From Bdellovibrionales bacterium (GTDB lineage: Bacteria; Bdellovibrionota; Bdellovibrionia; Bdellovibrionales; UBA1609), in assembly GCA_016716765.1 (NCBI GenBank), contig JADJVA010000009.1:71013-135012 (forward strand): a stretch of 64,000 bases of DNA, in the 5' to 3' direction. How positions within the stretch are numbered: the first letter of the stretch is position 1; each line of letters begins with the position of its first letter. This document shows positions 8,121 through 62,950 of this stretch, piece after piece. The translations under genes were made by a program, and so were the position numbers. The notes under the pieces were generated by a model. The model was not told where the DNA came from, did not search any database, and saw only the letters and a list, made by a program, of their open reading frames with translations.

Positions 8121-8340
8121 ATTGAAGAGAGGCTTTACAACAAATTCAAGTGGAACCAATGAATGGGTTTCGACACAGAATAGCAATTCAAACAATCTAC
8201 CGGTAAATTATACTTGGAATAATTTAGGTAAGTTGGGCATGCTCGTTGTTCTTGTTTCTATTCTTATTTTTGTTGATCAACTTGTTCGGAATATTTTATC
8301 ATTTAGGAAAACAGAATCTTCTAATGAAGGCGAGCAGTGA
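8107..8340 (+). CDS. 77-aa single-pass membrane peptide, candidate substrate/partner of the downstream radical SAM enzyme
   Basis: ATG with AGGAAA 7 nt upstream. Overlaps the ATPase stop by 14 nt, and its own stop overlaps the rSAM start (GTGA). Polar N/S/T/W-rich head (GFTTNSSGTNEWVSTQNSNSNNLPVNYTWNN), then a TM helix (LGMLVVLVSILIFV). Confidence 0.5.
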   Translation: MKILKLKRGFTTNSSGTNEWVSTQNSNSNNLPVNYTWNNLGKLGMLVVLVSILIFVDQLVRNILSFRKTESSNEGEQ

Positions 8341-11827: not shown

Positions 11828-12030
11828 CTCAAGATGACTCCATTTAGTGACAACTTTAATGTTGCCTTAAGAAGTGCAATTGTTGAAAGTAAAAAAATAA
11901 TACATTGCATTATTTGGATTGAGTGATTTTGATCCTTTGCTTTTCATCGGAGTTGAATCCGCCTTTTGCCCTGAGATACAATTCATCGTGGGCTGTGTAG
12001 TTTAACTGTGTAGTGGGGTGGATGGTGGGA

Positions 12031-16191: not shown

Positions 16192-17589
16192 TTATCTGTT
16201 CACAATAGAAAAACGCGAGGTAAAATGCCTTAAAAATGGAGGTTCCCAGGTAATCTTCATCCCTCGAATTCCATTTTTGTTCTGAGCTAGTTCGGCCATG
16301 CCTTCAAGAATATAGTCAAAATGGCTCTGCGTGTAGACCCGGCGAGGAAATGCAAGTCGCACCAGTTCCATCGGTGCAGCTTGAAATTTCCCGTCCACCG
16401 TTTTGCCAAACATTACCGAACCGATTTCACAAGAGCGGATTCCTTCAGCTAAGAACATTTCACAAACTAAAGCTTGCCCCGGTAGTTGATCCTGCGGAAT
16501 ATGTGATAGAAAACTCTTGGCATCGATATAGACAGCATGCCCCCCGGCTGGTTGCATGGTCGGAATTCCCAATTTATTTAATCCTTCAGCCATGTATCGT
16601 GATACAGCGATACGATAAGAAAGATAAGATTCATCGAGAACCTCTGTAAGACCGACAGCCAAAGCTTCCAGGTCCCTCGCAGCAAGACCTCCGTAGGTTG
16701 GAAAACCCTCTGTAAGAATAAGCGAGGCACGCAGGGAGGCTAACCAATGATCATTCTTCAGTGCAATAAAACCGCCGATATTTGAAAGAGCATCCTTTTT
16801 CCCGCTCATCATGCAACCATCTGCCAGAGAAAAGGTTTCTTGAGCGATGTCTCTTACAGAACGAGATTCTTGCCCTCGTTCTCGCAATTTTATCAGATAG
16901 CTATTCTCAGCGAATCGACAAGCGTCCAAAATAAATGGAATTCCATATTTCTTATAAATCTTTGAGGCTTCTCGAATATTCTCTAAAGAAACTGGTTGGC
17001 CCCCGCCCGAATTGTTCGTGATAGTCAACATACCACACGGAATTTGGGTCCGATGTTCAGAACAAAAGGAATCAAGCTTTTCTAAATCAATATTTCCTTT
17101 GAAGGGGTGCATTTTTGCAGGGTCTTTTCCCTCTTCAATGACCAAATCGACGGCTTCTGCACCAGATTGTTCGATGTTGGCACGAGTGGTATCAAAGTGA
17201 TTATTAGACGGTATCTTCATTCCTGGTTTGAGAATGACTCCAAAAAGCAGGCGCTCGGCTGCCCGTCCCTGGTGAGTGGGGATAACATATTGATAACCGG
17301 TAATGTCACGGACTGCATGCTGGAATCGTTCAAAGCTGGTTGAACCTGCGTAGCTCTCATCAGCGACCATCATTGCGCCCCATTGAGCGGCACTCATGGC
17401 GCTCGTTCCGCTATCGGTCAGGAAATCGAAGGTCACATATTTTGCTGCAACTAAAAATAAATTGTATCCCGCTTCCTCAAGAATCTTCTTTCTGCTTGCA
17501 CGAGAGTGAAACGGAAGGGGCTCTACCATTTTAATTTTGAATGGTTCTATTATGGTTCGTTGGCGTTTTGGTTGATTTTCAAGTTTCAT
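16192..17589 (-). CDS. tnaA: tryptophanase (tryptophan indole-lyase), PLP-dependent beta-eliminating lyase
   Basis: Full-length family match (FLTDSGTSAM, PTHQGRAAE, MSGKKD PLP lysine, FPTYGGL). It has Asp in HFDTTR and His in LRHFTSRF, the positions that are Asp137/His463 in E. coli TnaA. Confidence 0.8.
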   Translation of the reverse strand: MKLENQPKRQRTIIEPFKIKMVEPLPFHSRASRKKILEEAGYNLFLVAAKYVTFDFLTDSGTSAMSAAQWGAMMVADESYAGSTSFERFQHAVRDITGYQYVIPTHQGRAAERLLFGVILKPGMKIPSNNHFDTTRANIEQSGAEAVDLVIEEGKDPAKMHPFKGNIDLEKLDSFCSEHRTQIPCGMLTITNNSGGGQPVSLENIREASKIYKKYGIPFILDACRFAENSYLIKLRERGQESRSVRDIAQETFSLADGCMMSGKKDALSNIGGFIALKNDHWLASLRASLILTEGFPTYGGLAARDLEALAVGLTEVLDESYLSYRIAVSRYMAEGLNKLGIPTMQPAGGHAVYIDAKSFLSHIPQDQLPGQALVCEMFLAEGIRSCEIGSVMFGKTVDGKFQAAPMELVRLAFPRRVYTQSHFDYILEGMAELAQNKNGIRGMKITWEPPFLRHFTSRFSIVNR

Positions 17590-17595
17590 TTCGGA

Positions 17596-19106
<1,511 letters not shown>

Positions 19107-38152: not shown

Positions 38153-39517
38153 CTATTTGCTGATTTGAAAAGCCAGCTCCAGCGCCTGACTTGCGTTAAG
38201 TCGTGGATCGCAGAGCGTTTCGTAAAGCCCCTCAGCGAGGTGCTCTTCCAAAATGGCCTGATCTCCGCCAATGCACTCCACAACGTCTCTGCCGGTTAAC
38301 TCAAAGTGCACTCCTCCAGCCACGGTGCCAAAGGATTCATGAACCTTGAAGAATTTTTTGACTTCAGAAATGATCGCGCCGAAAGCCCGCGTTTTGTAAC
38401 CATTCTTTGCCGTAATTGTATTGCCGTGCATGGGATCGCAACACCAAACAACCTGGCGGCCCTCTTTCTGAACATGCTGAATCAGTTTTGGCAAAAACAC
38501 ATCGATTTTTTCAAAACCCATCCGCGAAATAAGGGTCAAGCGTCCCATTTCATTGCGCGGATTGAGAATATCCATCAGACGTGACAGCTCGTCGGTTGTA
38601 ATTGAGGGCCCGCACTTCACCGCAATCGGGTTGTTCACACCACGTAAGAATTCAACGTGAGCTCCGTCTGGCTCTCTGGTGCGATCACCAAGCCAAAGCA
38701 GGTGCGCTGAACAATCATACCAGTCGCCTTCGTAATCCTGCTCGGGCCTCGCTGTGGTGCTATCCCGCCGAGTTAAGGCCTGCTCATAAGGCAGCAACAA
38801 CGCCTCATGGGAGGTGTAAAACTCGACCTGATGAATCTGTGGAGTATTTTCGTTGGTAATACCACAGGCTTTCATAAAAGCCAGAGCCTCGTCGAGACGA
38901 CTGGCAATGTCCTCGTAAAGGCTGCTCTGGGCCGTGTTTTTTTTCACAAAATCAAGATTCCAAGCATGGACTTGTTTCAGGTCGGCATAGCCCCCATGGG
39001 AAAATGCGCGCAGAAGATTTAATGTGGCGGCAGCCTGCACATAAGCCCGCTCCATCCGCACCGGATCTGGAGTTCGTGCGATCGGGTCAAAATCACTGCC
39101 GTTGATGATATCTCCTCTGTAACACGGGAGCCTCACTCCATCTCGAATCTCTACATCGCTACTGCGAGGCTTAGCAAACTGCCCAGCCAGCCGTCCCACT
39201 TTGATGACCGGCTTTTTCCTGACATAAGTCAAAATCACCGCCATCTGTAAAAGCACGCGAAACGTATCACGAATGGTATTCGCACGAAATTCATTGAAGC
39301 TTTCCGCACAATCGCCACCTTGAAGTAAAATTGCATCACCTTGACCAACCTCGGCCAAACGCTCTTTGAGACAACGAGCCTCGCCGGCAAACACCAGCGG
39401 CGGGTAAACAGCCAAGCTGGCTTCCACTTCTGCCAACTTTCCAGGATCGGGGTACACAGGCACCTGGGATACCTTTTTGTCACGCCAACTTCTCGGAGTC
39501 CATAAAGCCTGGTTCAT
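38153..39517 (-). CDS. 3-deoxy-7-phosphoheptulonate (DAHP) synthase, class II
   Basis: 454 aa. N-terminal [19 protein letters not shown] and overall length are typical of plant-like class II DAHPS. Confidence 0.85.
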
Positions 39518-39518
39518 T

Positions 39519-39896
39519 TTACTGACCTTTCACTTTCACTACCCTACGACCTGATTTTTGTACCGAGGGCGCCTTTTTCTGCTGAAAAGTAGCCTCCGCC
39601 AATATCATTTCAAAAATTCCACGAATAAAACTTTTTCGAAGACCCATTTTTGCCCCAAGCTGAGAGCGGTTATGCAAGACCTCGACCTCCCGCTGATTCT
39701 GGACAATGCTGCGACGACCCTGCCTTTTCAATTGACCGACTTTTGCTACGATCCCGAATCTCCGCCGCAAAGCTACCAAAATTTGCCGATCAGCCTTGTC
39801 TATGTCCCTCCGCAAAAGCTGCAGCCGTCGATCAAACGAATCCTTTGAAGCCTTAGAGGTTTTAAGATTTTTTCTCCTTTTACGAGCCTCACTCAT
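39519..39896 (-). CDS. chorismate mutase (AroQ class)
   Basis: [33 protein letters not shown]. Small helical protein. ATGA overlap with tyrA. Confidence 0.75.
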
Positions 39897-40774
39897 GGTG
39901 CCGTACCACGACTGGCCTGCCGAATATTCTGTAAAACTCGGCGTATGCCATTTGCATTTTCCATCAAAGCCTTTGTTTCATCAAAGCTCTTATTCAGAAG
40001 TGATTGCTGAAATATTCTCAAATTTTCCATATAAGCCTCCAGCGCGGCAAGCACGTGTTCGCGGTTCTGTTCAAAAATCGGCAGCCACATCGCCGACGAG
40101 CTTTTTGCCAAGCGTGATGTGGATTCAAATCCTCCGCTAGCCAGATCAAAAATAGTGCTGACGCTATTTTCCTTATTGAGCACCGTGTTTGCCAAAACAA
40201 ATGAAATCGCGTGGGATAGGTGAGAGATAAATGCCGTGTGCAAATCATGCTCATCCGCCGCCATATAGACCGTCTTCATCTGCAATACTTCGAACATCTC
40301 ATCAACTCGACGCAAATGGGATGCTGCCGATTGCTCCGCTTCACAAATAACGGCAGAACGATTCGCAAACAACCCACGGAGCGCAGCCCCAGGCCCAGAA
40401 TGCTCTGTCCCGGCCATGGGGTGAGCCGCTACATACTGAGCTCTTTTTGCATGCCCCGCCACAATTTCGCAAATCGCCTTCTTGGTCGAGCCCATGTCAG
40501 AGACAGTGGTTTCAGCACTTATCTGGTCCAAGACTTCTGGCAAAAGTGAAATGATCTTATCAACCGGAACCGCCAACACCACCAATTCTGCACCACTCAG
40601 GGCTTCCTTGAGGGGCGCAATTCTGTCAACGATCCCGCGGTTCAGTGCCAATCGGCAATGTTCAAGATTCACGTCAACGCCAACAACACTTCTCGCTAAG
40701 CCTTTTGCCCTAAGATCCAGCGCCAGCGATCCTCCAATTAATCCCAAACCAATCACGGTAAGGTTCATAGCCAA
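39893..40774 (-). CDS. tyrA: prephenate dehydrogenase
   Basis: Rossmann N-terminus LTVIGLGLIGGSLALDLRAKG, HPMAGTEHSGP motif. Confidence 0.85.
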   Translation of the reverse strand: MAMNLTVIGLGLIGGSLALDLRAKGLARSVVGVDVNLEHCRLALNRGIVDRIAPLKEALSGAELVVLAVPVDKIISLLPEVLDQISAETTVSDMGSTKKAICEIVAGHAKRAQYVAAHPMAGTEHSGPGAALRGLFANRSAVICEAEQSAASHLRRVDEMFEVLQMKTVYMAADEHDLHTAFISHLSHAISFVLANTVLNKENSVSTIFDLASGGFESTSRLAKSSSAMWLPIFEQNREHVLAALEAYMENLRIFQQSLLNKSFDETKALMENANGIRRVLQNIRQASRGTAP

Positions 40775-41631
40775 GGTCTCTCACTTCGTTTGTAATCGCC
40801 AAATTGAATTAAATTAATGGTCTTGGCTTTTAGCTCATTCAAAGCCAACTGATAATCACCCATATTCAGCCACTCAAGATCCACATGAAAGGAGTATTCA
40901 TAAGGCCTGCCCAATACGGGAACCGACTGCAGCTTTGTCATATTCAGATTGTGCGTTTCAAAAATTTTTAACACTTTTAGGAGACTACCGGACTCGTGTG
41001 CGATCTCAAAGCGAAGAGAAGCCTTATCAGGTGTAACGACTGGTAGACCCCAGTCACGCAAATCCTCTTTATTATTGGCTAGGATCAAAAAGCGGGTGTA
41101 ATTCAGTTTATTCGTTTCAATTCCCGCTTTTAAGATCTCCAAGCCGTAAACTTCAGCCGCGCCTTTACCGGCGATCGCCGCGTTTCCGAGCAGCTGATCG
41201 ACGGCAATTCGCCTGGCACTTTCCGCGGTATCTGGTCCTTCTAAGACCTGCAAATGAGGATAGTTAGCAAGAAAATCCTCGCACTGCAGAAGAGCCATGG
41301 GATGCGACTGGACAACCAATACATCTTCGATTGTCTGACCTGGCAATGCCATTAAATTCAGTTCAATGCGCAAGTAAACCTCACCGACAATTTGCGATCG
41401 AAACTTTTCAAGCAATTGATAGTTCGGCAAAATGCTTCCAGCCAGGGAATTCTCTATTGCCATCACGTTAAAATCGGTTTCGCTCCCCCGCAGAGCCTCG
41501 GCCAAGCGCCTAAATGATGAACATTCAACTAATTCGATGGAACGATTGGTGAAATACTCGCGAGCCGCCGCATCGTGAAAGGCGGCGCGAATGCCCTGGA
41601 TCCCTATCTTGGGGTTTTTTTCATTTTTCAC
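40765..41631 (-). CDS. pheA: prephenate dehydratase with C-terminal ACT domain
   Basis: IGIQGIRAAFHDAAAREYF at the N-terminus. ACT region SLRFEIAHESGSLLKVLKIFETHNLNMTKLQSVP..PYEYSFHVDLE. Confidence 0.85.
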   Translation of the reverse strand: MKNEKNPKIGIQGIRAAFHDAAAREYFTNRSIELVECSSFRRLAEALRGSETDFNVMAIENSLAGSILPNYQLLEKFRSQIVGEVYLRIELNLMALPGQTIEDVLVVQSHPMALLQCEDFLANYPHLQVLEGPDTAESARRIAVDQLLGNAAIAGKGAAEVYGLEILKAGIETNKLNYTRFLILANNKEDLRDWGLPVVTPDKASLRFEIAHESGSLLKVLKIFETHNLNMTKLQSVPVLGRPYEYSFHVDLEWLNMGDYQLALNELKAKTINLIQFGDYKRSERPWL

Positions 41632-41672
41632 TTTCTCGCCTCACTTGCATATCCTCAACCAGCTTTCTTCTA

Positions 41673-42752
41673 TCATATTCTCGCAGACCTCTGTCGCAAC
41701 AAGTGATCCACCACAGTCAAAGCGGCCATGGCTTCAACAATAACTACCGCCCGCGGAACCACACAAGGATCATGTCGGCCGCGCCCGGCCAACTCAAGGC
41801 TTTGACCGCTCTTGTCGATGCTGGTTTGCTTTTTCATAATTGTCGCTACGGGCTTAAACCCGACACGAAAATAAATATCCATACCGTTCGAAATTCCACC
41901 CTGAATTCCTCCAGAGTTGTTGGTGCGTGTCCGAATCTGACCGTTGACGACCTCAAACGGATCGTTATGTTCTGAGCCCTTCTGAGTTACGCCAGCAAAG
42001 CCAGAGCCAATTTCAAATCCCTTCGCTGCATTGATACTCAACATCGCCTTAGCTAAATCGGCATTCAAACGATCAAAAATTGGCTCGCCCAATCCAGCTG
42101 GGCAGCCACGCACAAGACCGGTAACGACTCCTCCCAAGGTATCTCCTTCTTTGCGGACATCCTCTATAGCACGAATCATTCTCTCGGCCGTAGCTGAATC
42201 TGGACAACGTACAGGATTTTCATCCCTTCGCGACAGATCCAAATTCAAGTAGGTTTTGTCCAAACACACCTCTCCCACCTGTGAAACATAGGCCGCCACT
42301 TCGATGTTATGCTGGCGCAAAAGCAGCTGCGCCACGGCTCCAGCAAAAACCCGGGCTGCCGTCTCCCGAGCGCTAGAACGGCCTCCACCACGGTGGTCAC
42401 GCAAACCAAATTTGGCATCGTAAGTATAATCAGCATGCGATGGACGATATGCATTGGCAACATGGTCATAATCCTGTGCGCGACTGTCCTCATTGGGAAT
42501 CAATGCCGCCAAGGGTGTGCCAAGACTGACATCATTGAGAACGCCAGAAACAATTCTCGCCTGATCACTTTCTTTGCGTTGAGTGGTCAAATGCGACTGC
42601 CCGGGTCGACGACGATCGAGCTGCGCCTGAATAAAACCGTGGTCGATTTTCAATCCAGCTGGGCATCCGTCAATCACCACACCCATCATCGGACCATGGG
42701 ATTCGCCAAAGGTCATGATACGAAAAATTTGGCCAAATGTATTACCGCGCAT
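41673..42752 (-). CDS. aroC: chorismate synthase
   Basis: MRGNTFGQIFRIMTFGESHGPMMGVVIDGCPAG, GGGRSSARETA. Confidence 0.92.
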   Translation of the reverse strand: MRGNTFGQIFRIMTFGESHGPMMGVVIDGCPAGLKIDHGFIQAQLDRRRPGQSHLTTQRKESDQARIVSGVLNDVSLGTPLAALIPNEDSRAQDYDHVANAYRPSHADYTYDAKFGLRDHRGGGRSSARETAARVFAGAVAQLLLRQHNIEVAAYVSQVGEVCLDKTYLNLDLSRRDENPVRCPDSATAERMIRAIEDVRKEGDTLGGVVTGLVRGCPAGLGEPIFDRLNADLAKAMLSINAAKGFEIGSGFAGVTQKGSEHNDPFEVVNGQIRTRTNNSGGIQGGISNGMDIYFRVGFKPVATIMKKQTSIDKSGQSLELAGRGRHDPCVVPRAVVIVEAMAALTVVDHLLRQRSARI

Positions 42753-42803
42753 AAAAGTTCGCCTTTCCTTTCCGCTTCTCTTCTGTGCTCTTCTTTTCTG
42801 TTC

Positions 42804-43301
42804 TCACTCTGGCCTACGAGACAATCTTGATCGAGGCGCTCTTGAGCGAGACAGAAAATGTTGGATCGCCTTTGCATAGGAGTTTACGCCAAATCCAGAA
42901 ATCTGCTTCACACACACATCACGAATAACCGAAATTCTGCGAAATTTTTCTCTTCTGTGTATGTCGGTCAAGTGAACCTCATAGGCTGGCAAATCCACAG
43001 CTGCCAAGGCGTCTCGGATCGCATAGGAATAATGGGTGAAGGCGCCGGGATTGATCACAATTGAATCAGCCCACTTGCGTTGCGCGTGGATAAAATCAAT
43101 CAGTTTTCCTTCATGATTAGATTGAAACACCCGCAATTTATACCGACTTTTTCGAGCGTCCGCTCTTAATCCTTTATTCAATTCAGCAAGGGTCATGTGA
43201 CCGTAAATGTGCGGCTCACGTTGACCCAACAAGTTGAGATTCGGGCCATGAATAATAACAATATTCTTCTCAACTTTCTTCTCCTCAACTTTCTTCAGCA
43301 T
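42804..43301 (-). CDS. aroQ: type II 3-dehydroquinate dehydratase
   Basis: IIHGPNLNLLGQREPHIYG, INPGAFTHYSYAIRDA. Confidence 0.92.
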   Translation of the reverse strand: MLKKVEEKKVEKNIVIIHGPNLNLLGQREPHIYGHMTLAELNKGLRADARKSRYKLRVFQSNHEGKLIDFIHAQRKWADSIVINPGAFTHYSYAIRDALAAVDLPAYEVHLTDIHRREKFRRISVIRDVCVKQISGFGVNSYAKAIQHFLSRSRAPRSRLSRRPE

Positions 43302-44439
43302 GATGGCCTCCCACTAACAGTTTTCTGTAAGCCTTCTCAAGATCATTGCGAGTCACCGTCACGTCTAAAACGGCTCGCCCCAGTCTTTTGAGCAAGACAA
43401 AACGAATCCGGCCCTCGTGCTTTTTTTTGTCTTTGGCCATCGCCTGTGTCAGCTGGTCAAATCCAATGTGCTTCGGCAGAGCCGGCACCTCGATCATATT
43501 TAGAAAAGCCGTTATGGTTTTTGCCTGGTTCAGTGATAAGTGACCCTTTATTTCTGACAAGCAAATAGCAAAACGCATACCCCAGATAACTGCTTCCCCG
43601 TGTTGAAATATTTCATAATCTGTCACAGCTTCGAGCGCGTGTCCAAATGTGTGCCCAAAGTTTAAAACCTCGCGCCGACCCTTGCGATCCCATTCGTCGG
43701 CAGCTACAACCTTAGCTTTCCAAGATAGAGATTCATGAACCAGTTTGCTTAGTACTTTGGCATCCAAATTCAAAGCCGCTCGCCAATGCTTGTTCAGATA
43801 GACAAAAAGCTCTTTGTCATAGATGAGCGCATACTTGATAACTTCACCGAGGCCAGAAATAATCTCGCGAAGGGACAATGTTTTCAGAAAATTTGTGTCA
43901 CAAACAACAAGTGCAGGTTGATGAAATGTTCCAATCAAATTTTTCCCTAGAGAATGATTGACGCCTGTCTTACCGCCAATGGAACTGTCAACCTGCGCCA
44001 GAAGAGTCGTGGGAATCCCCACCCAACTCACTCCGCGCAGGTAAGTGGAAGCGAGGAATCCTCCAGCATCACCAAGAGTTCCTCCACCCAGTACAAAAAC
44101 CGTGGAAGAACGATCAATCCCAAATTTGAGAAAATCGCCATAAATCGGCAAAATGCTCGAAAAGTCCTTTAAGGATTCACCGGCCGCCAGTTTAATTACG
44201 TCCATCTTCCAGCCTGATTTCCTCAAAACCGCCAACACCTTTTTCGCTGGATGCGCTAGTCTCTCATCAGCGAGCAATATCCCTCGTTTCGACCGGATAC
44301 AACCAGTTGGACTCTGCAACTGAAGAAGCACTTGACCCAGCCGACTCGTAACTCCTGGGCCAACGAACACACAGTAAGAACGCGCCCCGAGTTTAACTTG
44401 CATTCGGGATTCCTTTTTATCATTGGATTTCAGCTTCAC
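43285..44439 (-). CDS. aroB: 3-dehydroquinate synthase
   Basis: GGGTLGDAGGFLASTYLRGVSWVGIPTTLLAQVDSSIGGKTGVNH. GTGA overlap with the upstream gene. Confidence 0.9.
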   Translation of the reverse strand: MKLKSNDKKESRMQVKLGARSYCVFVGPGVTSRLGQVLLQLQSPTGCIRSKRGILLADERLAHPAKKVLAVLRKSGWKMDVIKLAAGESLKDFSSILPIYGDFLKFGIDRSSTVFVLGGGTLGDAGGFLASTYLRGVSWVGIPTTLLAQVDSSIGGKTGVNHSLGKNLIGTFHQPALVVCDTNFLKTLSLREIISGLGEVIKYALIYDKELFVYLNKHWRAALNLDAKVLSKLVHESLSWKAKVVAADEWDRKGRREVLNFGHTFGHALEAVTDYEIFQHGEAVIWGMRFAICLSEIKGHLSLNQAKTITAFLNMIEVPALPKHIGFDQLTQAMAKDKKKHEGRIRFVLLKRLGRAVLDVTVTRNDLEKAYRKLLVGGHHAEES

Positions 44440-45914
44440 GAGACTTTACTCCGCAAAATCTTAATAATTCCATCCGCCACTTCGCTTGGTGATTTTTTGT
44501 CAGTTTGAACTTGCACAGAAGCCTCAGCATACTGCGCTTCGCGAGCTCGCAAAAGATTTTGCAAGTGAGTGATTCGATCACCGCTCGTCTTTAAAAGGGG
44601 ACGTTCCTCCCATTCACTTGAAAGACGCTCCAACAGGCTTTCGGGGCTGGCCTTTAGATAAAACAAATCACCCGCCTGGCCAATCAGTCGGCGATTTTCT
44701 GGACTGATCAAGGCACCACCTCCCAGCGCACAAACGCCACCCGCCGAAATCCGGCGCAAAAGATCCTGCAATGCCTGACTCTCCCATCGACGAAATTCGA
44801 TCTCACCGCCCTCAGAAAAAATTTGCGGGATTGATTTTCCCGCCAATTCGACAATCAATGCGTCTAAATCAAAAAAAGGGCAAGCCAATTTCTGGCTTAG
44901 GATTCTTCCCGCCGCCGACTTTCCGACACCCATAAATCCACACAAAAAAATCGGCCGCTGGAAGTCGGCCCGCGGCAAGGGCTTGGCGCTATCAAAACGT
45001 AAAATATCACGCAGAAATGCAGTCAAATCACTCGCCAAGACTTCTTTGGTCCTAGCCGACAATGGACCAAACCAAATTTGCCAAGTCGCCAAAGCTTGAC
45101 TAACAAACATGGTCAATCCACCAATGGCCCGCAAGTTTGCACGCTGCGCCTCTTGCAAAAACAAGGTCTGCTCTGGCCGGTAAATCAAGTCCAGGGCCAA
45201 AGCTTGCCGCGAACAGCGAAGAAAAATTTCTGAAAAGTCGATAGGCCCTGAGCCCCTATTAGTCGGGCGAGTATTTGCTAGGTCCCCGTTCATGCGATCA
45301 TCATAATGGACCATTCCCACGGGCGTCGCCTGCACCACCAGATCAGCCAAGACATCGATTGAAGCGGCCGTTGCCACCGACGAAAATTCTGTTGATTTGA
45401 AAACGGCCGACAGATCATTGAGGAGGTTCTGCGCCCTTTGCACTCCACGGTTGATCACTACAATCCTCTGCGCACCAGCTTTCGCACAAGCGTAAACGGT
45501 TGCCCGTGCAGCCCCTCCTGCGCCAATAATCAAAATAGTTTTTCCATGACAGACAAATCCAACTTTTTCCAAAGTGGCCTCTATGCCTGCCACATCAGTG
45601 TTGTAACCACGTAGTCGCTCGCCCATGACCTTAACAACATTGGCCGCACCAAGCACCTGAACTTCTGGGGCCAGTTCATCGAGATAACACAAAATCGATT
45701 CCTTGTGAGGAATCGTGACATTAAGTCCCAACCATTGAGCCCCCTCAGACTGTTTGCGCAATCGCTGACAGAAATTCTCAAGCTGCTGTGACTCCACATC
45801 CAGCGCCTCATATCGCAACCGATTGTCCCCCAAACTTTCACCAATAAAGCCAAACACCTGAGGAGAAAGCGAATGCGAAATGGGATGTCCGATGACGGCC
45901 GCACGTAAATTCAT
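44436..45914 (-). CDS. aroE-aroK: fused shikimate dehydrogenase / shikimate kinase
   Basis: The N-terminal half has VIGHPISHSLSPQVF, LNVTIPHK and GAGGAARA (AroE). The C-terminal half has FLCGFMGVGKSAAGR Walker A and a GGGALIS-type region (AroK). Start set at ATG 45914, forming ATGA with the aroA stop. Confidence 0.85.
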   Translation of the reverse strand: MNLRAAVIGHPISHSLSPQVFGFIGESLGDNRLRYEALDVESQQLENFCQRLRKQSEGAQWLGLNVTIPHKESILCYLDELAPEVQVLGAANVVKVMGERLRGYNTDVAGIEATLEKVGFVCHGKTILIIGAGGAARATVYACAKAGAQRIVVINRGVQRAQNLLNDLSAVFKSTEFSSVATAASIDVLADLVVQATPVGMVHYDDRMNGDLANTRPTNRGSGPIDFSEIFLRCSRQALALDLIYRPEQTLFLQEAQRANLRAIGGLTMFVSQALATWQIWFGPLSARTKEVLASDLTAFLRDILRFDSAKPLPRADFQRPIFLCGFMGVGKSAAGRILSQKLACPFFDLDALIVELAGKSIPQIFSEGGEIEFRRWESQALQDLLRRISAGGVCALGGGALISPENRRLIGQAGDLFYLKASPESLLERLSSEWEERPLLKTSGDRITHLQNLLRAREAQYAEASVQVQTDKKSPSEVADGIIKILRSKVS

Positions 45915-47194
45915 TTTGTGAGGTCTTGCAAAGTAGAATAAAATTCTGGATAAGAAATCCCGACACAATCAGATCCGCAGATCAGACTCTCCCCTTCGGC
46001 GATCAATGCCGCCACGCTGAATGCCATGGCGATCCGGTGATCGTGAAAGCTATTGATTTCTGCACCAATTAGCTTCTGTGGACCCTCGATAATAAATCCG
46101 TCCCGGGTTGTTTCAATCACTGCCCCCATAGCCCGAAGATTGGTGGCCACGGCCTCGATCCGATCGGTCTCTTTCACCCGCAATTCTTCAGCGCCCGTGA
46201 CTTTCGTTGTTCCGTGTGCCTGCGTGGCCAATACTGCGAGGATGGGCAATTCATCAATCAGCGATGGGATCTCGTGTTCCGACACCACAACACCTAACAG
46301 CGGTCCATGGCAAGCCTGAATCTCGCCCATGGGTTCTGGATTTTCCTCCGTTAGGGCTACACGGATTGTCGCACCCATGCGCCGTAACACCTCAATAAAT
46401 CCCGTGCGTGTTGGATTGAGTGAGACACCGCTCAGCCGCAAATCCGACCGGGGAACCAAAACGGCGGCCGCCAGCCAAAATGCGGCGGTGGAGGGATCGC
46501 CAGGCACACGTAAAATATTGGCCGAAAATTGTTGACCACCACACACCCGCACCTCCTCGGAGTTAGACTCAATATGCACTCCGAAATGTTTCAACAGCCT
46601 CTCTGTGTGATCACGACTATGAATCTCTCCCCAAATCCGCGTATCACCGTCTGCTAACAAACCAGCCAAAATAATCGCCGTTTTAATTTGGGCGCTGGCG
46701 ATTTTCAGTTCGTAGTCGATTCCGTGAAGACGACGACCCAGAACTTCCAAAGGAGCGAAATCCTTGCCGGTTAGTTCGATCTGCGCGCCCATTTCTCTCA
46801 ATGGATCTGCCACCCTCCTCATCGGCCGTTTTATCAGGGACTCATCACCTGTCATCTTCACCCGTATACCTTCTACGGCGGACAAAACACCCATCATCAG
46901 GCGCATGGTCGTCCCTGAATTCCCGCAATCCAATATTTGCGTGGTATTTATAAAACTTTCAGGGCCTCTTCCTTCTATAATAGTCACATGCCCTTCTTTG
47001 CGGATGGGCACTCCAAGTTGTCGAAGAACACGGGCTGTTGATTGGACATCAGCACTTTCTAAAATATGATGAACCTCGGTTCGACCCTGGCTAAGCGCGC
47101 CAAAAATCAGTCCGCGGTGGGAGATAGATTTATCTCCCGGCAATTTCAAAGATCCGCGAAAGTTACTTACCGGGCCCACGCGACTGTCCATCAT
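45911..47194 (-). CDS. aroA: 3-phosphoshikimate 1-carboxyvinyltransferase (EPSP synthase)
   Basis: LPGDKSISHRGLIFGAL, DCGNSGTTMRL. Start moved to ATG 47194 (GGAG 6 nt upstream). Confidence 0.9.
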   Translation of the reverse strand: MMDSRVGPVSNFRGSLKLPGDKSISHRGLIFGALSQGRTEVHHILESADVQSTARVLRQLGVPIRKEGHVTIIEGRGPESFINTTQILDCGNSGTTMRLMMGVLSAVEGIRVKMTGDESLIKRPMRRVADPLREMGAQIELTGKDFAPLEVLGRRLHGIDYELKIASAQIKTAIILAGLLADGDTRIWGEIHSRDHTERLLKHFGVHIESNSEEVRVCGGQQFSANILRVPGDPSTAAFWLAAAVLVPRSDLRLSGVSLNPTRTGFIEVLRRMGATIRVALTEENPEPMGEIQACHGPLLGVVVSEHEIPSLIDELPILAVLATQAHGTTKVTGAEELRVKETDRIEAVATNLRAMGAVIETTRDGFIIEGPQKLIGAEINSFHDHRIAMAFSVAALIAEGESLICGSDCVGISYPEFYSTLQDLTK

Positions 47195-47375
47195 CAATTC
47201 TCCAGTTGTATCTGTATATATCGCGCCCATAATAGGCATTACGCGAATACGCGTCAAACGCTAGAGTAAGATTTAACGAATTAGACGCGCTTCCGGGAGG
47301 TCTCAGCAGGCCCTTGAGGCTTCGGATCAATTTTTCTCCTGGTCACCTAAGGTTTTCAAAATCAAATCTGAGGTA

Positions 47376-49611: not shown

Positions 49612-51165
49612 TCAGGCTCGAGAATCAGGTGATAAAATGATCTCAGCGAGGCGCTCGAAGTCTTCTAGGGATTTGGCCAGTGGTAGCTCAGTGAGCATTC
49701 GAACCATGGCCGCGTAGGGGTTCACCCCATTGATTTTGGCTGTTACCGTGAAGCTGTACATGACACTGCTGGCCTCGGCCCCCGCGGGGTGTGTCGGAAA
49801 ACAGCCACGCATTCCTGCCGATGGCATACTTGCGGATCGCTCTCTCCGTAAAGCCATTGTCCGCCTCCAGACGCCCATCCTTGAGGTAGCCTGTCAGGTA
49901 CTCATACTCATTCAAAAAGTAGCGGAGGGCCCCTCCGATCTTGCTTTTACTGGAACCTTTGGCTGATGCCTTTCAGCCCACTCCTTCATCTCTTTCCAAA
50001 TGGGCTCAGCTATTTCCAGCCTCAGGCGGTACCGCTCCTCAGGCGGCATCTCGCCGATTTTTTCTTCCAGATCATACAGTTTTTTAAAGTAACCAAGTCC
50101 TGCCTCTCCAAGGCTTCGGCCGGACTTAGCCCCATCCACTGTGGCGGATTCAAATTTCCTGCGGGAGTGCATCCCACATCCTATGCGGATCACGCCCTCT
50201 TGTTTTTCCAACACATCATAGGCATTCAATCCGTCACATTGCAGATATCCTGTAATTCCGTCCAGAAGCTGCCTGGCCGCTTCCTGGCTCCGGGATATGC
50301 GGTAATCAAACAGAACAATCTTCTTGTCCCCGTAGGGCGTACTCCTCACCCACATCCATGATTTGTCTTCGGCCTTCCTGCCATTCTCTTTGAGAACCTG
50401 CACTTGCGTCTCATCCACGGCCACATAAAAAGAGGTTATCAGCCGGTCTGAAAGAACATTCCAGACAGGCACGAGAGCCTGCGCCACTTGCACCACCCAG
50501 CGGGCCATCGTGCTGCGGGGAAGATCAACTCCCTGACGCTCCATGATCTCCTCAATCCGATACAGCGGAAGTCCATCGCAATATTTGGAGGTGATAATGG
50601 CGGCAAGCAACTCGGGAGTGGCAATCCCCTTAGGGATCACGCAAGGCACTGGCGGAGCGGTCTTCACATAGTCCCCGCTATCCACTCCATACTTGGCCCG
50701 CTCATAGCGGATCACACTGACTTTAGCTGGCTCATACTTGAGCTTCTCCGAGAACTCCCAGCCAATCACCTTGAGAGGTTGCCCCTCTTCAGAAAAACGC
50801 TCGTTTTCTGGAAGCTCGATCTTCACCACTTCCCGCTCAAGGTTCTCGGGGATTGGACGACGATGACCCCGCTGCCTCTTATGCGAAGGAACCGTGACCT
50901 CGACCTGCGCCTCATCCTCTTCGGGTGTCCCTTTGGAGACTTCAAGTTCCACTTCGTTGTAGAGAACCCTCTGTTCCGGCGACACCCAAGACTCCGACTT
51001 TCTACCAAACTGCGCTCGTTTGAGAGAACGGATCTGCTCATGCAACCAAGTGACCTCACTTTGCAGGAACTTGATCTTCTCTTCATCAAGACGAGCACGC
51101 GCTCTCAGGCCTTCATTCTCTGAGGACAACTCTTCTTGTTTTGAAAATAGCTCTCGCGGCTGCAT
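49612..51165 (-). pseudogene. tnpC: IS66 transposase TnpC, split into three frames by two frameshifts
   Basis: Frame 1 (49912-51165) ends ..PKVPVKARSEGPSATF. The next frame reads SKIGGALRYFLNEYEYLTGYLKDGRLEADNGFTERAIR. The third reads GAEASSVMYSFTVTAKINGVNPYAAMVRML. These are contiguous conserved IS66 TnpC segments. The breaks lie at a T4 run (about 49945-49948) and a C5 run (about 49779-49783). Confidence 0.8.
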
Positions 51166-58978: not shown

Positions 58979-59422
58979 GTGAAGCCTAGATTGTCCCCCC
59001 TTCATTATCCTGTTGTCATAAAGCAACATCTTGATTTTATTGTTCTTTCTGTGCCTGATTTGGGTATTAGTCTCGTTGAAAACGCTCCCCTCCAAGGCAA
59101 ACTAAACCCCGAATATGTTCTTAAAATCGCCACTGCGCTCGCAAATGTTTGGCTTAAGGCTCAAAAAAGACTTCTTGAACATCAGTCCGCTGGGAAAAGT
59201 GCACCCTCCCCGTCTAAACAGAAAATGTCGGTTGATGCGAGGAGATTGCAATACATGACGGCCTCTGAGGTGGCGAAACGACTTGGCGTCAGCCGAATGA
59301 CCGTTCATCGATTGGTTAAGAAGGGTTTACTAACTTGTACAAAAACAAGGGGCCAACACTCTCGCTTTTCCGAACTAAACCTAAAGGCCTACGAAAAGAA
59401 ATACTGCGTCAAAAATGAATGA
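58979..59422 (+). CDS. HicB-like N-terminal domain fused to an excisionase/MerR-type HTH
   Basis: HYPVVIKQHLDFIVLSVPDLGISLVENAP fits the HicB antitoxin fold pattern. C-terminal MTASEVAKRLGVSRMTVHRLVKKGLLTCTKTRGQHSRF is the excisionase-family HTH. Confidence 0.55.
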   Translation: MKPRLSPLHYPVVIKQHLDFIVLSVPDLGISLVENAPLQGKLNPEYVLKIATALANVWLKAQKRLLEHQSAGKSAPSPSKQKMSVDARRLQYMTASEVAKRLGVSRMTVHRLVKKGLLTCTKTRGQHSRFSELNLKAYEKKYCVKNE

Positions 59423-59460: not shown

Positions 59461-59913
59461 CTAGTGATTCAAATTAGAACCTTCAGAAATCTCTGATTGT
59501 TTGATGGAAATTTCGTCTATCGATTCGGCCTCATTAGCTTCAAAAAGAACGCTGCCCTGACTGTCTGTGTCGATTCCACCCTCCGACTCGGATGCCTTCT
59601 TGACTGGTATTTTCTTAACGCCGGGCTTCTTCCGTTTTACTTGGGGCGACTTTGAGGATTCTGCCGCTTGGTCCACTCCGATGAGTCCTCCCATATTCTC
59701 CTTGAGAGATTGAATTCTATCATCGGTCAGTTTTTTCAGCTTAGCCTTAGAAAGATTGAACTTATCAGCCAACATCAGTGTCTCATCAAACTCAACTTTC
59801 GCCTGTTCAAACTTAAGTCTGGCTTGCTCAAGTTGATTTTTCGCGCATTCAAGATTTACAGAAGTCCGATCCATCTGAGACAAGAAGTCCATAAGTTGCA
59901 TATCGTCTCCCAC
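59461..59913 (-). CDS. acidic coiled-coil hypothetical protein
   Basis: 150 aa. N-terminal heptad-rich helix, Lys-rich centre (KRKKPGVKKIPVKK), acidic tail. Last gene of the parA-led minus-strand string. Confidence 0.45.
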   Translation of the reverse strand: MGDDMQLMDFLSQMDRTSVNLECAKNQLEQARLKFEQAKVEFDETLMLADKFNLSKAKLKKLTDDRIQSLKENMGGLIGVDQAAESSKSPQVKRKKPGVKKIPVKKASESEGGIDTDSQGSVLFEANEAESIDEISIKQSEISEGSNLNH

Positions 59914-60038: not shown

Positions 60039-61958
60039 TCATAGTGTATCGTTATTATTACGCGATCGTTCGTTTTCAATAATTCTTGCCAAGACTAGTT
60101 TTTGATATGAGACACTGCCTAGCTTTGCAAGATGGCTCTCTGGCACCAAGTGCCGTTTCTCGTCGTCTGTCAATTTTTGAAATATCTCGGTGGCGGCTGC
60201 CACCAAGGCTGTCTCTGCTGTTTTCCGACGAAGATCTAGGGTTTCGCGCCTGCGAAGTTCGTTTGCCTCTACCTGCATCTTAAGCTCGCTCATATAGGCT
60301 TCCGAAACGTAGGCTCCAGAACGTCTCAAAATGCCCATGAGAAAGCCTAACTTGGACCCGCGGCTTTTCACCTGACCTGCATCAAGATCGTAGGCAAAAG
60401 CTTCCAAGGAATCCTGAACTTCCGTCGCTAAAAGGGTACCCGTATGGAAAAGCTGGCGAATTTGTGTTCTCCCAAATCCAATGTCCTGCAAGGAAGGAGG
60501 TATCTGAATATCCGACCAATCAATGGGGAGATCTATTGGTGTTGATGAAAATGACGGGTTGGTTTCTGATGTTGTGTTGTTAGTAGTAGTAGCTTTTTTG
60601 ATTAAATTTACACTACTACTACTAGAGGGCGTTGTGTCCGGTAACGTGTTCGCTTTGTGTTCGCTTTGAGGGGTTTTTGTGTTCGCTTTAGAGGTCATTT
60701 GTATGGCGAGATAGCCGTCAAAATGCTGATCTGGAACGCCAAATTCGATGAGACATCCCCTTCCTAATCCAAGCGGTCTTTTTGTTAAAAAGCCGTCTAG
60801 TTTCATCCGTTGTGTCGTTGTTTTTACCGACCCAAGCCTAATATTTGAAGCCTTTGCGAGGTATTCATGAGTTGTTGAAATCGTGCGGCTTCTTGATTGC
60901 AAACAGAGCTCAAGAATGCTTTCAAAGATCTTTAAGCGATTGCCTGAAAGATTTTGCACGGAGTGTTCAGTTCGAAAAATGTGGCTAGACGGTGTGTTCG
61001 GGTTTTGTGTCCAGTGTAGTGTTCGCTTTGTGTTCGCGTTGTGTTCGCTATCTGTGTTCGACTCATGTTGTGTTCGCTTTGTGTTCGCTTTGTGTTCGCT
61101 ATCTGTGTTCGCATTTGTCAAGCTCTTGCCAGCATCTAAAATTTCAAATTCTGAGTAATTTTTAGAGTATTGAGGCTGCCGTTTGTGTTTCTCTGATAAA
61201 GATTGTGTTCGCTTTAATGTTTTTTTGTGTTCGCTATCGTTTTGATTTAAAGCAACTACATCTCTACTTGTGTTCGCTATTTGTGTTCGGTTAAGCTCTG
61301 CGTTCTGTTCCGTTTCCGACCTACTGTCAGAGTCTAAATTACTTGAATTATTACTATTATCAAAAACCGTGTTCGCTATTCGTGTTCGCTTTTCTAGTGG
61401 AATGTGTTCGCTATTCGTGTTCGCTTTTCTCAGAAGATCTAGGTAGGTCTGCTCTTTAGATGTGTCCGATTTGTGTTCGTTATTTGTGTTCGCTTTCTGT
61501 GTTCGTATGATCTCCTGCGAAGGGTCTTTTGGAGTGAGAATCGACTTTGAAAAACCAAGGTGATTGCCATTTAGGTCTGCATTCTCAGCGAATTTGTGTT
61601 CGCTATCGTCGCTATTTGTGTTCGCTATTTGTGTTCGCTTTTTCAGAGGCACATCAGAAGCCTCAGAATTGAAAACTACCATGTCACTGGCTAGGGGTAA
61701 TCCAGCGTGGTCTGCCGACAATCCTCGATCGTTTAAATCGATATCAAGATTGAATTCAATCTTAGGATCAGTGACTATCAAAGGCTTCGCATCATCCTCA
61801 AGATTTGCAGAAGTCTCTTTACTAGAATCTCTTTTCTCTTCGCTAGCTTTCAAAGAGGCCATGGTCTCCTTTATTCCATAGCCTCTTTTTCCAGTGCGCA
61901 CCGAGGGCACCTTTGGTCCCTTCGATGCCTTTTCTAGGAGATCGTCAAGCTTAGCCAT
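60039..61958 (-). CDS. 639-aa putative replication-initiator or centromere-binding protein (winged-helix) whose gene contains a dense DNA repeat array
   Basis: wHTH-like RLKIFESILELCLQSRSRTISTTHEYLAKASNIRLGSVKTTTQRMKLDGFLTK. Conserved-looking C-terminal domain (LQDIGFGRTQIRQLF...SKLGFLMGILRRSGAYVSEAYM). Lies 19 nt downstream of parA. The N-terminal two thirds are low complexity, generated by the GTGTTCGC array. Confidence 0.55.
   Translation of the reverse strand: MAKLDDLLEKASKGPKVPSVRTGKRGYGIKETMASLKASEEKRDSSKETSANLEDDAKPLIVTDPKIEFNLDIDLNDRGLSADHAGLPLASDMVVFNSEASDVPLKKRTQIANTNSDDSEHKFAENADLNGNHLGFSKSILTPKDPSQEIIRTQKANTNNEHKSDTSKEQTYLDLLRKANTNSEHIPLEKRTRIANTVFDNSNNSSNLDSDSRSETEQNAELNRTQIANTSRDVVALNQNDSEHKKTLKRTQSLSEKHKRQPQYSKNYSEFEILDAGKSLTNANTDSEHKANTKRTQHESNTDSEHNANTKRTLHWTQNPNTPSSHIFRTEHSVQNLSGNRLKIFESILELCLQSRSRTISTTHEYLAKASNIRLGSVKTTTQRMKLDGFLTKRPLGLGRGCLIEFGVPDQHFDGYLAIQMTSKANTKTPQSEHKANTLPDTTPSSSSSVNLIKKATTTNNTTSETNPSFSSTPIDLPIDWSDIQIPPSLQDIGFGRTQIRQLFHTGTLLATEVQDSLEAFAYDLDAGQVKSRGSKLGFLMGILRRSGAYVSEAYMSELKMQVEANELRRRETLDLRRKTAETALVAAATEIFQKLTDDEKRHLVPESHLAKLGSVSYQKLVLARIIENERSRNNNDTL
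60634..61638. repeat. iteron-like array: about 26 direct copies of GTGTTCGC (plus degenerate copies), all in one orientation
   Basis: Hand count of 21 exact GTGTTCGC. They start at 60646, 60657, 60679, 61019, 61030, 61041, 61070, 61081, 61092, 61105, 61205, 61227, 61270, 61369, 61382, 61404, 61417, 61486, 61596, 61618 and 61631. Five one-mismatch copies start at 60994, 61054, 61283, 61473 and 61499. Confidence 0.9.
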
Positions 61959-61976: not shown

Positions 61977-62950
61977 TTACTGACTTACATCAGCTGGAAG
62001 TTTGGAAAGACCAATGATCTCGTCTACGAGTTGAGCTATGTCTTTATAGAAATTCGAGGTTGGAGACAGGTCAGACTGTCCAGACTGAACACGATTTATC
62101 GTATTGTCTGCTCGAATTACCGTGGAAAAGAGCTCTGCTTTCGTGTTACTTTCTAAGGTTCCAAGGGATTCCTTTAAGGATACGACCCAGCCGAGCTGAG
62201 ACGACAGGCGATTGTCCAGTTGGTTGATGAGAATTCTCACCTCTGGCTGGTAGAATTCATATTCCATCAACCATTCTCGCAAAGATTCAAGAGTCATCTG
62301 GACTCCTTCGATACTAAATCTGGTCAAAAGAGTGGGAATAATAATGAGATCTGCTGCCAAACTTCCAAGAAAATTGATCTGTGAAAAACTAGGCGACATG
62401 TCAAAAATAACAAAATTGGAATTCTGATCCTTAATGAGATTTCCAACGTAGGTTGCAGGATTTTTCTGAAAGCCACTCAGCTCAGTTTCAAGACGTGAGT
62501 TGAGGAGACTAGATGGCAGCACCTTAAGCCGTCATCAACATCAACAACAGCATCTTCGATACTGCACTTTCCAGTGATAACATCGTGGAGCACGTACCTG
62601 ATCTTCTTTTGAAGACTTTCGTCATTGAGAAAAAACATGGTACTGTTTGCTTGTGGGTCCAAATCAACCACAAGTACCTCAAAACCGAGGTCTACCATTC
62701 TCCGGGCCATGGAAGTGGCGATCGAGGTCTTGCCTACTCCACCCTTATTGTTGCTAATCGCGATTGTCTTCTTGTTCGAATAGCTAATGCCGCGGTGGCT
62801 GAAGAGCTTTCGTACAGCCGCTCGCGTGTACATTCTTGTTCTCCCCTTGAGACTTGATTCTTCATCAAGAATATTGAGGGCCTTGCTTAAAGCGCTAATT
62901 CGCTGAGGAGTCACACTTAACGAATCCGATAGTTCTTGCGTGGAAATCAT
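61977..62950 (-). pseudogene. parA: ParA/Soj-family partition ATPase with N-terminal HTH, interrupted by a 1-nt frameshift near 62520
   Basis: GGAGGTAGGTTT-ATG start. Deviant Walker A AISNNKGGVGKTSIA. ORF 62477-62950 ends ..VVDVDDGLR and ORF 61977-62522 resumes VLPSSLLNSRLETELSG..FVIFDMSPS, a contiguous ParA sequence in a different frame. Confidence 0.8.

Follow-up and report, generated by a model that had tools for sequence, protein, structure and literature searches.

We find that a 639-residue open reading frame (ORF X), in a 64,000-nucleotide stretch of a Bdellovibrionales contig (the whole stretch is called the window below), carries two arrays of a short direct repeat, GTGTTCGC, within its own coding sequence, on either side of the segment encoding its predicted winged helix-turn-helix (wHTH), and that it directly follows a parA gene. 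The interpretation we favor, and consider probable, is that these repeats are ORF-embedded iterons for the winged helix of X itself and make up a cis-acting plasmid maintenance site, most likely an origin and possibly a centromere. An origin role as such, with or without a centromere role, is held with similarly moderate confidence.

In the proposed mechanism, the GTGTTCGC copies (GCGAACACAAA on the coding strand) would be sites on double-stranded DNA that the winged-helix domain of X binds specifically, placed in the DNA for two disordered linkers, where almost any hydrophilic peptide would be tolerated. Together with an (AGT)4/AT-rich/(ACT)4 inverted repeat, they would make up the cis-acting site at which the two-gene operon parA-X controls maintenance of a large plasmid. 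X would oligomerize on both arrays flanking the segment that encodes its own DNA-binding domain, unwinding or loading would take place at the AT-rich inverted repeat, and host replication proteins would be recruited by the conserved C-terminal domain. The X-array nucleoprotein complex may also be the cargo of ParA, contacted through the Lys-rich N terminus of X. Here we infer that X binds the repeats, that the site is active as an origin, and that X contacts ParA; the features on which the model is built are as follows.

60039 to 61958, minus strand: ORF X, 639 aa, with an N-terminal short helix, a disordered region, the wHTH, a second disordered linker, and a helical C-terminal domain
60994 to 61638, plus strand (antisense to X): upstream array, 23 GTGTTCGC sites (18 exact, 5 with one mismatch), encoding X residues 107–322, predicted to be disordered
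60963, 61007, and 61462, plus strand: degenerate copies in the upstream array
60634 to 60689, plus strand: downstream array, exact sites at 60646, 60657, and 60679 and a degenerate GTGTCCGG at 60634
60581 to 60623, unstranded: inverted repeat, TAGTAGTAGTAG (60581–60592), a 19-nt AT-rich spacer, and ACTACTACTACT (60612–60623)

A Repeat Array Translated in All Three Frames

The 8-mer GTGTTCGC occurs 22 times in the window, against an average of 1.33 in dinucleotide-preserving shuffles, none of which had more than 6, and 21 of the 22 copies lie on the plus strand at 60646–61638; the single copy away from the array is at 40055. Five copies with one mismatch (60994, 61054, 61283, 61473, and 61499) share the stretch and the orientation of the exact copies, and degenerate GTGTCCG or GTGTCCA copies are found at 60634, 61007, and 61462. 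A recount thus confirmed the first-pass annotation of this DNA, which had listed 21 exact and 5 one-mismatch copies in one orientation together with degenerate ones. The start-to-start spacings that it had given for the dense block at 61019–61112 (11, 11, 13, 16, 11, 11, and 13 bp) were likewise reproduced, and nearest-neighbor spacings overall comprise five of 11 bp, eight of 13 bp, and four of 22 bp, plus larger gaps. Its proposal that the copies are set about one helical turn apart holds for neighbors and fails over long range, where 10.5-bp phase coherence is absent (resultant 0.13 at 10.5 bp, with a peak of 0.55 at 12 bp). The 315-bp gap over the winged-helix segment is the one spacing divisible by 3.

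The 26 sites use all three frames of the minus-strand ORF (10, 8, and 8 sites), as had been claimed, and the coding-strand unit GCGAACACAAA is translated as ANT, RTQ, or SEHK according to frame; the unusual peptide NANTDSEHKANTKRTQ pointed out at first reading is indeed found in ORF X. The downstream array codes for the first residues past the wHTH. A 51-bp (17-codon) block of four sites is duplicated in frame at 61015–61111 with 95% identity (Tandem Repeats Finder), which shows how the array grows without a frame break. Whatever the frame, the A/C-rich sense unit is read as T, N, K, Q, H, E, S, and R with no stop codons, and the reversed unit would give F/V/C/L hydrophobic peptides, as it does in spurious plus-strand ORFs. 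Presumably, all copies have the same orientation because the reverse orientation would encode such hydrophobic peptides, and coding tolerance alone may fix the orientation of the array.

Constraint on Nucleotides Rather than on the Peptide

X has eight close orthologues (77%–97% amino acid identity in alignment A1; 594–642 aa) in which the frame is open. DNA was compared for six of the eight, giving a codon alignment of seven sequences with 84%–94% nucleotide identity to the window. Each of the six orthologues has 19–22 exact sites at near-identical gene positions and in matching frames, with none outside the gene. In the codon alignment, the fractions of invariant motif columns at codon positions 1, 2, and 3 are 0.91, 0.89, and 0.92, compared with 0.64, 0.72, and 0.53 for non-motif columns of the repeat region (Fisher p = 1.3e-9 for third positions) and 0.78, 0.87, and 0.47 for the C-terminal half of X. 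Furthermore, when only the most divergent orthologues were used to define the sites, the window proved 98%–100% identical at motif positions of each codon class, versus 75%–84% for neighboring bases. The codon periodicity seen in the coding sequence around it is therefore missing from the motif, a hallmark of selection on nucleotides, and this comparison of sequences shows the arrays to be under nucleotide-level selection. This bears out the earlier proposal of a constraint at the DNA rather than the peptide level; peptide repeats with scrambled synonymous codons, named beforehand as evidence to the contrary, are not seen in the orthologues.

In light of these data, it is very improbable that the nucleotide motif has no function of its own and that the array is a repeat at the protein level, or the product of neutral, microsatellite-like growth in a linker that tolerates it. 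The linker is weakly constrained as protein, and slippage or recombination does occur, as shown by the 51-bp block duplication and by the 594-aa orthologue P0003, in which a 46-aa deletion between two repeats is the converse of the window duplication. Such processes would not account for one 8-mer kept in three frames as three different peptides, for motif third positions that are 92% invariant versus 53% outside, for site positions common to orthologues at 84% nucleotide identity, or for an architecture that persists at 25%–35% amino acid identity. The peptide-repeat reading was rejected on the codon-position invariance. ORF X itself is genuine, being open in all relatives, with length changes among them in multiples of three and ordinary coding conservation in its first 100 codons.

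Predicted Fold of X

The structure of X was predicted with AlphaFold2 from a 46-sequence alignment. Local confidence is given as the predicted local distance difference test (pLDDT).

61923 to 61949, minus strand: N-terminal short helix, residues 4–12 (LDDLLEKAS), block pLDDT 69, followed by Lys/Arg-rich sequence
60684 to 60959, minus strand: wHTH segment, residues 334–425, mostly pLDDT >90, the repeat-free gap between the arrays
60051 to 60524, minus strand: C-terminal helical domain segment, residues 479–636, the best conserved part of the family

Residues 15–330 (apart from three short gaps) and 428–472 are almost entirely at pLDDT <50, and in this model every repeat falls where the DNA encodes one of the two linkers, predicted to be disordered, that flank the wHTH, in line with the winged helix flanked by repeats that had been noted from the sequence. 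The C-terminal domain, which contains the motifs AFAFDL and FMGILRKG..Y, reaches pLDDT 92 when modeled alone.

The family assignment of X was approached by sequence and by fold. X has no match among Pfam, NCBIfam, and PHROG models, and a PDB sequence search with a full-length X profile gave nothing meaningful. Foldseek matches of the wHTH are weak (E ∼4e-3) and generic, of MarR/ArsR type, with AspA and DnaD among them. Among the 46 family members, weak wHTH Pfam matches occur in 18. The search for Rep, ParB, or DnaD-like families suggested at first reading gave weak DnaD_N matches in 6 of the 46 and, apart from a Phage_rep_O match given below, no Rep or ParB match. PF06970 (RepA_N) has no match in X and is not among the 25 most-matched Pfam families of the 46 members. 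Nor was there a Rep_3 match (one winged helix is predicted, and the repeat unit is 11–13 bp) or a ParB/Srx (ParBc) match (the prediction combines a wHTH with a novel helical domain) in X or among the families listed for the 46. No RepC similarity was found for X in Pfam and NCBIfam scans or in the Pfam scan of the 46 members, and Phage_rep_O (PF04492) matches only 1 of the 46, weakly (E = 0.0054).

By inspection, the N termini of many family members are Lys/Arg-rich, and a simple L[DE][DE]LL-like pattern is present in only 54 of 231. We take Lys-rich N termini such as MAKLDDLLEKASK and MPDLEELLQSRSKKK to resemble ParB N-terminal peptides, and by this analogy the N-terminal helix of X with its Lys/Arg-rich sequence is a candidate ParA-interacting peptide.

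A Large Family with Member-Specific Motifs and Obligate parA Linkage

A contig scan with the single X protein found no relative; an alignment-based scan found 17 loci in metagenome-assembled genomes (MAGs) of Bdellovibrionota, Oligoflexia, Gammaproteobacteria, Planctomycetales, Alphaproteobacteria, and Ignavibacteria. The analysis also took in plasmids from Bdellovibrio sp. HAGR004, Legionella, and Piscirickettsia, with motifs read by hand or by script. A distant homologue at 34% identity (P0009) led to at least 384 relatives, with no precomputed Pfam domains among those listed, and an exhaustive profile search brought the family to no fewer than 2,357 clusters (50% identity) with E ≤ 1e-3, 1,086 of them with E ≤ 1e-30. 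A tblastn search found X homologues on 163 PLSDB plasmids, 135 from Piscirickettsia salmonis, 20 from Legionella, 4 from Bdellovibrio, and 4 others. Our limited literature search found no earlier description of the family on Legionella or Bdellovibrio plasmids.

Nearly every X gene examined carries its own same-strand motif, at 10–13-bp spacing and in several frames; the exceptions are the MAG locus L019, with no clear array, and the short Legionella homologues L031 and L032, with few repeats. Motifs of individual members include CGAACACAAA, CCGGACACAAA, TGGCAACAAAC, TTAGAACAAAG, AGATAACAAA, GGGTAGCAAA, GTGGAGCCAAAG, and TAGGGTTCAA, as well as TACCGACACA, with 30 copies in a 633-aa member, and TTAGATAWC in the Legionella plasmid pLPL. 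Every array-bearing locus has two motif clusters, 264–343 bp apart, and the gap between them is the wHTH-coding segment; the second, smaller cluster occupies the place of the downstream array in the homologues examined. The family consensus peptide QTxxKxxTNxx, with its 11-residue period, corresponds to the 11-bp DNA unit read in three frames. The array architecture is conserved and the motif is diversified across a very large family.

The motif differences appear to follow the protein. A recognition helix starting with SVKT pairs with an ...ACACAAA motif in five loci, of which two are distant relatives, and a start of the type S/T-A-K/Q pairs with GACAAA, AACAAA, or AGCAAA motifs. This covariation of motif and recognition helix, uncorrected for phylogeny, is no more than suggestive. 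Complete plasmids carry the motif nowhere but in the X ORF; only pLPL and the MAG locus L013 have a few extra copies, upstream of parA. Together, the repeats restricted to predicted disorder, the motifs that differ across the family, and the confinement to the ORF are consistent with the idea put forward at first reading, that of iterons or a centromere array which a coding region tolerates within it.

In all 16 loci with upstream sequence, X begins no more than 26 nt after parA or overlaps it. The same order is found in pLPL, pBdHAGR4, and L. pneumophila C9_S, and ParA is the sole conserved neighbor of X. The linkage of X to parA is obligate. In the window, X follows parA by 18 nt, as had been noted.

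61977 to 62950, minus strand: parA, Walker-type ATPase with an N-terminal HTH, split in the window by a 1-nt deletion near 62528

The deletion (GACGG-CTT in the window, GACGGCCTT in orthologues) yields two ORFs and is either an assembly error or the mark of a pseudogene; parA is intact (324 aa) in all orthologous loci. Partition models of the SopA, RepA, and ParA types match ParA in part.

In pLPL (L028, NC_006366), TTAGATA(A/T)C is repeated at 11-bp spacing both upstream of parA and inside X (1–135, 1572–1744, and 2177–2244), and a degenerate AGTAGTA...TACTACT inverted repeat comes after motif copies. In the locus L027 (NZ_CP061197), X is interrupted by stop codons.

An Embedded Inverted Repeat

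The inverted repeat, which the first-pass annotation had not mentioned, reads (AGT)4 ... (ACT)3-4 on the coding strand of the window and is translated as SSSS...TTT. As single-stranded DNA it is predicted to form a 13-bp stem (−8.1 kcal/mol, z = −2.8). Its family form, (TCT)AGTAGTAGTAGT followed by 18–27 AT-rich nt and ACTACTACTACT, is a perfect 12-bp inverted repeat that directly follows the downstream array and is present in nearly all homologous loci, at 25%–35% amino acid identity. Indeed, the corresponding protein signature S{3,}..T{2,} is found in 205 of 231 full-length family members. In the 15 genes scored, Ser is encoded by AGT at 58 of 70 positions in the run, versus 96 of 496 elsewhere in the genes, and Thr by ACT at 42 of 48 positions, versus 105 of 513, a codon choice that only DNA-level selection explains. 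Variable iterons next to a near-invariant inverted repeat would mirror the variable surface of the wHTH and the highly conserved C-terminal domain. We take the (TAG)n sequence to resemble DnaA-trios. No match to an integration host factor (IHF) site was seen by eye in the spacer, and a promoter and terminator scan gave nothing above shuffles.

The stem and the sense-strand repeats could instead act at the RNA level, with (GCGAACACAAA)n and an (AGU)4/(ACU)4 hairpin working in the mRNA as sites for an RNA-binding regulator or as a hairpin for translational pausing or processing. The copies are all on the transcribed sense strand in every family member, the inverted repeat would give a 12–13-bp RNA stem, and the conservation tests cannot tell DNA from RNA. 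We nevertheless regard this explanation as improbable. The uniform orientation has a simpler cause in the hydrophobic peptides of the reverse orientation, the motif differences between homologues appear to track the encoded recognition helix of the wHTH, and the extra copies in pLPL and L013 lie in an untranscribed or opposite-strand region upstream of parA. Furthermore, there is no Rfam match, a search of 58.5–64 kb having returned nothing relevant. CsrA/Hfq-type RNA motifs were set aside, since the motifs vary between members and that of the window lacks GGA.

Plasmids with parA-X and No Recognizable Initiator

On six complete parA-X plasmids, neither an annotated replication initiator (Rep) nor a MOB-suite replicon type is present.

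pLPL: 59.8 kb
L. pneumophila C9_S: 33 kb
L. israelensis: 47 kb
pBdHAGR4: 11.9 kb
pBdHAGR2: 48 kb
P. salmonis ps12201A.p6: 33.8 kb

A Replic_Relax protein is the only other candidate in pBdHAGR4 and in a circular 8.9-kb MAG contig (L020); in pBdHAGR4 it adjoins a coupling protein and is thus more likely involved in mobilization. The P. salmonis 33.8-kb plasmid (L033, NZ_CP061199) carries both parA-X and a canonical parA-parB, at 6654–8771 and 10611–12189, and no annotated Rep. For three of four P. salmonis plasmids, pPSLF89-1 to -3, the initiator, oriV, and iterons could not be identified in published work (PMC6963756).

For five of six complete plasmids, here counting L020 and not the P. salmonis plasmid, the detrended cumulative GC skew reaches its minimum no more than about 1.1 kb from X. 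Positions in individual replicons are listed below.

pLPL: minimum at 0.45–0.5 kb, X at 1.35–2.75 kb
C9_S: minimum at 13,153, X/parA junction at 13,116/13,142
pBdHAGR2: minimum at 16.5 kb, X at 14.0–15.6 kb
pBdHAGR4: minimum about 1.1 kb off X
L020: minimum about 0.2 kb off X

Together, the lack of a Rep on complete plasmids and the GC-skew minima favor an origin in or at parA-X, where repeats and AT-rich cis elements are found only inside X.

Origin, Centromere, or Both

The obligate coupling to parA, the Lys-rich N termini, the 11-bp unit, and the upstream copies in pLPL favor a centromere role, and origin and centromere roles are compatible. X could be solely a non-canonical ParB analogue, a winged-helix centromere-binding protein with a ParA-activating peptide at its N terminus, its arrays parS- or parC-like, with the origin and initiator elsewhere, which we consider fairly unlikely. 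Its case draws on the place of X at most 26 nt behind parA or overlapping it in every locus, with parA as sole conserved neighbor, and on N termini such as MAKLDDLLEKASK and MPDLEELLQSRSKKK, which we assume to be ParB-like. The 11-bp direct repeats in two clusters recall R1 parC, AspA, a wHTH centromere-binding protein, is among the fold matches, and the extra copies upstream of parA in pLPL and L013 are at the usual place of a type Ib centromere/operator. It would, however, leave six complete parA-X plasmids without a recognizable initiator, one P. salmonis plasmid having a canonical parA-parB besides parA-X and still no Rep. An AT-rich inverted repeat kept across the family is unexpected in a centromere, and X has no ParB/Srx domain.

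Several observations weigh against the preferred interpretation of an ORF-embedded maintenance site with an origin role. No sequence similarity between X and any Rep family was detected, and its C-terminal domain has no PDB match by fold (Foldseek) or by sequence (profile search). An 11-bp unit read by a single winged helix is more typical of R1 ParR/parC and TubR/tubC than of the 17–22-bp iterons of Rep proteins, and a tightly coupled place after parA is the classic place of ParB. No DnaA box (TTATCCACA, up to one mismatch) is present at 52–64 kb of the window. PLSDB gene tables are incomplete. On the L. israelensis plasmid, which is rich in insertion sequences, the GC-skew minimum is elsewhere; moreover, partition loci often adjoin origins, so that GC skew cannot place the origin inside X, and it also tracks gene orientation. 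Finally, a 416-aa ORF downstream of X in the MAG locus L010 (3373–4623) has a borderline DnaD_N match (26.9 bits, cutoff 27) and could be a separate initiator in that element.

A further step, which we put forward only tentatively, is that parA-X is a self-contained replicon-plus-segregation cassette, in which one winged-helix protein is both initiator and ParA adaptor. The whole cis site would lie inside the disordered linkers of X, favoring cis action of the nascent protein, and the invariant (AGT)4/(ACT)4 element, beside variable iterons, would serve for unwinding or loading and be recognized by the invariant C-terminal domain or by a host factor. If true, it would reveal the replication system so far missing for plasmids of P. 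salmonis, Legionella (pLPL-type), and Bdellovibrio, and for no fewer than 2,357 protein clusters (50% identity) in metagenomes.

Relation to Known Replication and Partition Systems

The closest precedent for the preferred arrangement is found in the RepA_N theta replicons of Firmicutes, where repeats lie inside the initiator's own gene, in linker-encoding DNA. In pSK41, the N-terminal winged helix of Rep binds four Rep boxes central in rep, the origin DNA encodes a linker that can be deleted from Rep, and the C-terminal domain contacts DnaG (PMC5703833). RepA_N-type replicons (pSK41 Rep and pAD1 RepA) have a separate C-terminal domain thought to contact host replication proteins (PMC5703833, PMC7145576). 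X shares with them arrays inside the ORF, in regions predicted to be disordered (pLDDT <50). Unlike them, X lacks PF06970 similarity, is always coupled to an upstream parA, occurs in Gram-negative hosts, and carries the extra conserved (AGT)4/(ACT)4 inverted repeat; the four Rep boxes of pSK41 form one central cluster, whereas X genes have 10–30 sites about 11 bp apart in two clusters flanking the DNA-binding-domain segment. Read as a claim of no precedent, the remark in the first-pass annotation that it knew of no comparably dense array over most of an ORF is too strong, since the pSK41-type origin is central in rep and linker-encoding (PMC5703833); the annotation had itself cited lambda O.

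Other systems share parts of the arrangement. The lambda O gene contains iterons and an AT-rich region between the parts for its N-terminal DNA-binding and C-terminal partner-binding domains; lambda has four 19-bp iterons and no ParA partner, whereas X has dozens of 11-bp units. R1 parC and tubC consist of 11–12-bp direct repeats, about one helical turn, in two blocks that are cooperatively coated, and TubR is a winged helix. In those systems the motors are the actin-like ParM or the tubulin-like TubZ and the repeats are intergenic, whereas X is paired with a Walker ParA and has its repeats in the ORF; their proteins also lack the large C-terminal domain, and the systems lack the conserved inverted repeat. 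Rep_3 initiators (RepE, π, and RepA of pPS10) have two winged helices and 17–22-bp iterons beside an AT-rich DNA unwinding element, unlike X with one predicted winged helix and an 11–13-bp unit; an AT-rich inverted repeat adjoins the downstream array of X.

The order of parA and a gene for a DNA-binding partner resembles ParABS of type Ia/Ib and repABC, and ParA has an N-terminal HTH as in type Ia. Unlike these, X has no ParB/Srx or RepC similarity, and a single protein stands in place of RepB plus RepC. In repABC, the origin lies inside repC (PMC3155836). By sequence, X belongs to none of the RepA_N, lambda O, and repABC RepC families. Origin repeats inside an initiator gene are thus already known in kind (pSK41-type RepA_N, lambda O, and repABC RepC); new with respect to known systems are the two arrays of 11-bp units bracketing the DNA-binding segment, the trinucleotide inverted repeat, the constant parA linkage, and the Gram-negative hosts.

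The arrays are a natural case of overlapping codes, a dense, putative protein-binding array running through a translated ORF in three frames and accommodated by predicted intrinsic disorder. They also mark a very large, unannotated family with a putative role in plasmid maintenance, which comprises 2,357 clusters (50% identity, E ≤ 1e-3) and occurs on 163 PLSDB plasmids, among them plasmids of two pathogens for which published work gives no initiator, origin, or iterons. If confirmed, X would define a new replicon and incompatibility type for MOB-suite and PlasmidFinder and offer a compact vector backbone for Bdellovibrio, Legionella, and Piscirickettsia, and the member-specific motifs would let incompatibility groups be predicted from sequence.

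Surroundings of parA-X in the Window

Downstream, X is followed by a 150-aa ORF without family match (59461–59913, minus strand), beyond which lies a convergent 147-aa HTH_17/MerR-like ORF (58979–59422, plus strand). Both are kept in all close orthologous loci and not in the wider family.

The window replicon is probably a megaplasmid, as suggested by its shikimate genes, its IS66 and Mu-type transposases, and orthologous contigs that reach 112–162 kb. A complete shikimate-pathway cluster at 38153–47257, on an apparently plasmid-type replicon, comprises class II DAHP synthase, chorismate synthase, DHQ synthase, a fused shikimate dehydrogenase-kinase, and EPSP synthase. The IS66 transposase (49912–51165) adjoins this cluster, and the Mu-type transposase is at 176–1672. 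Two tandem β-eliminating lyase genes of the tryptophanase/tyrosine phenol-lyase family are located at 16192–19029.

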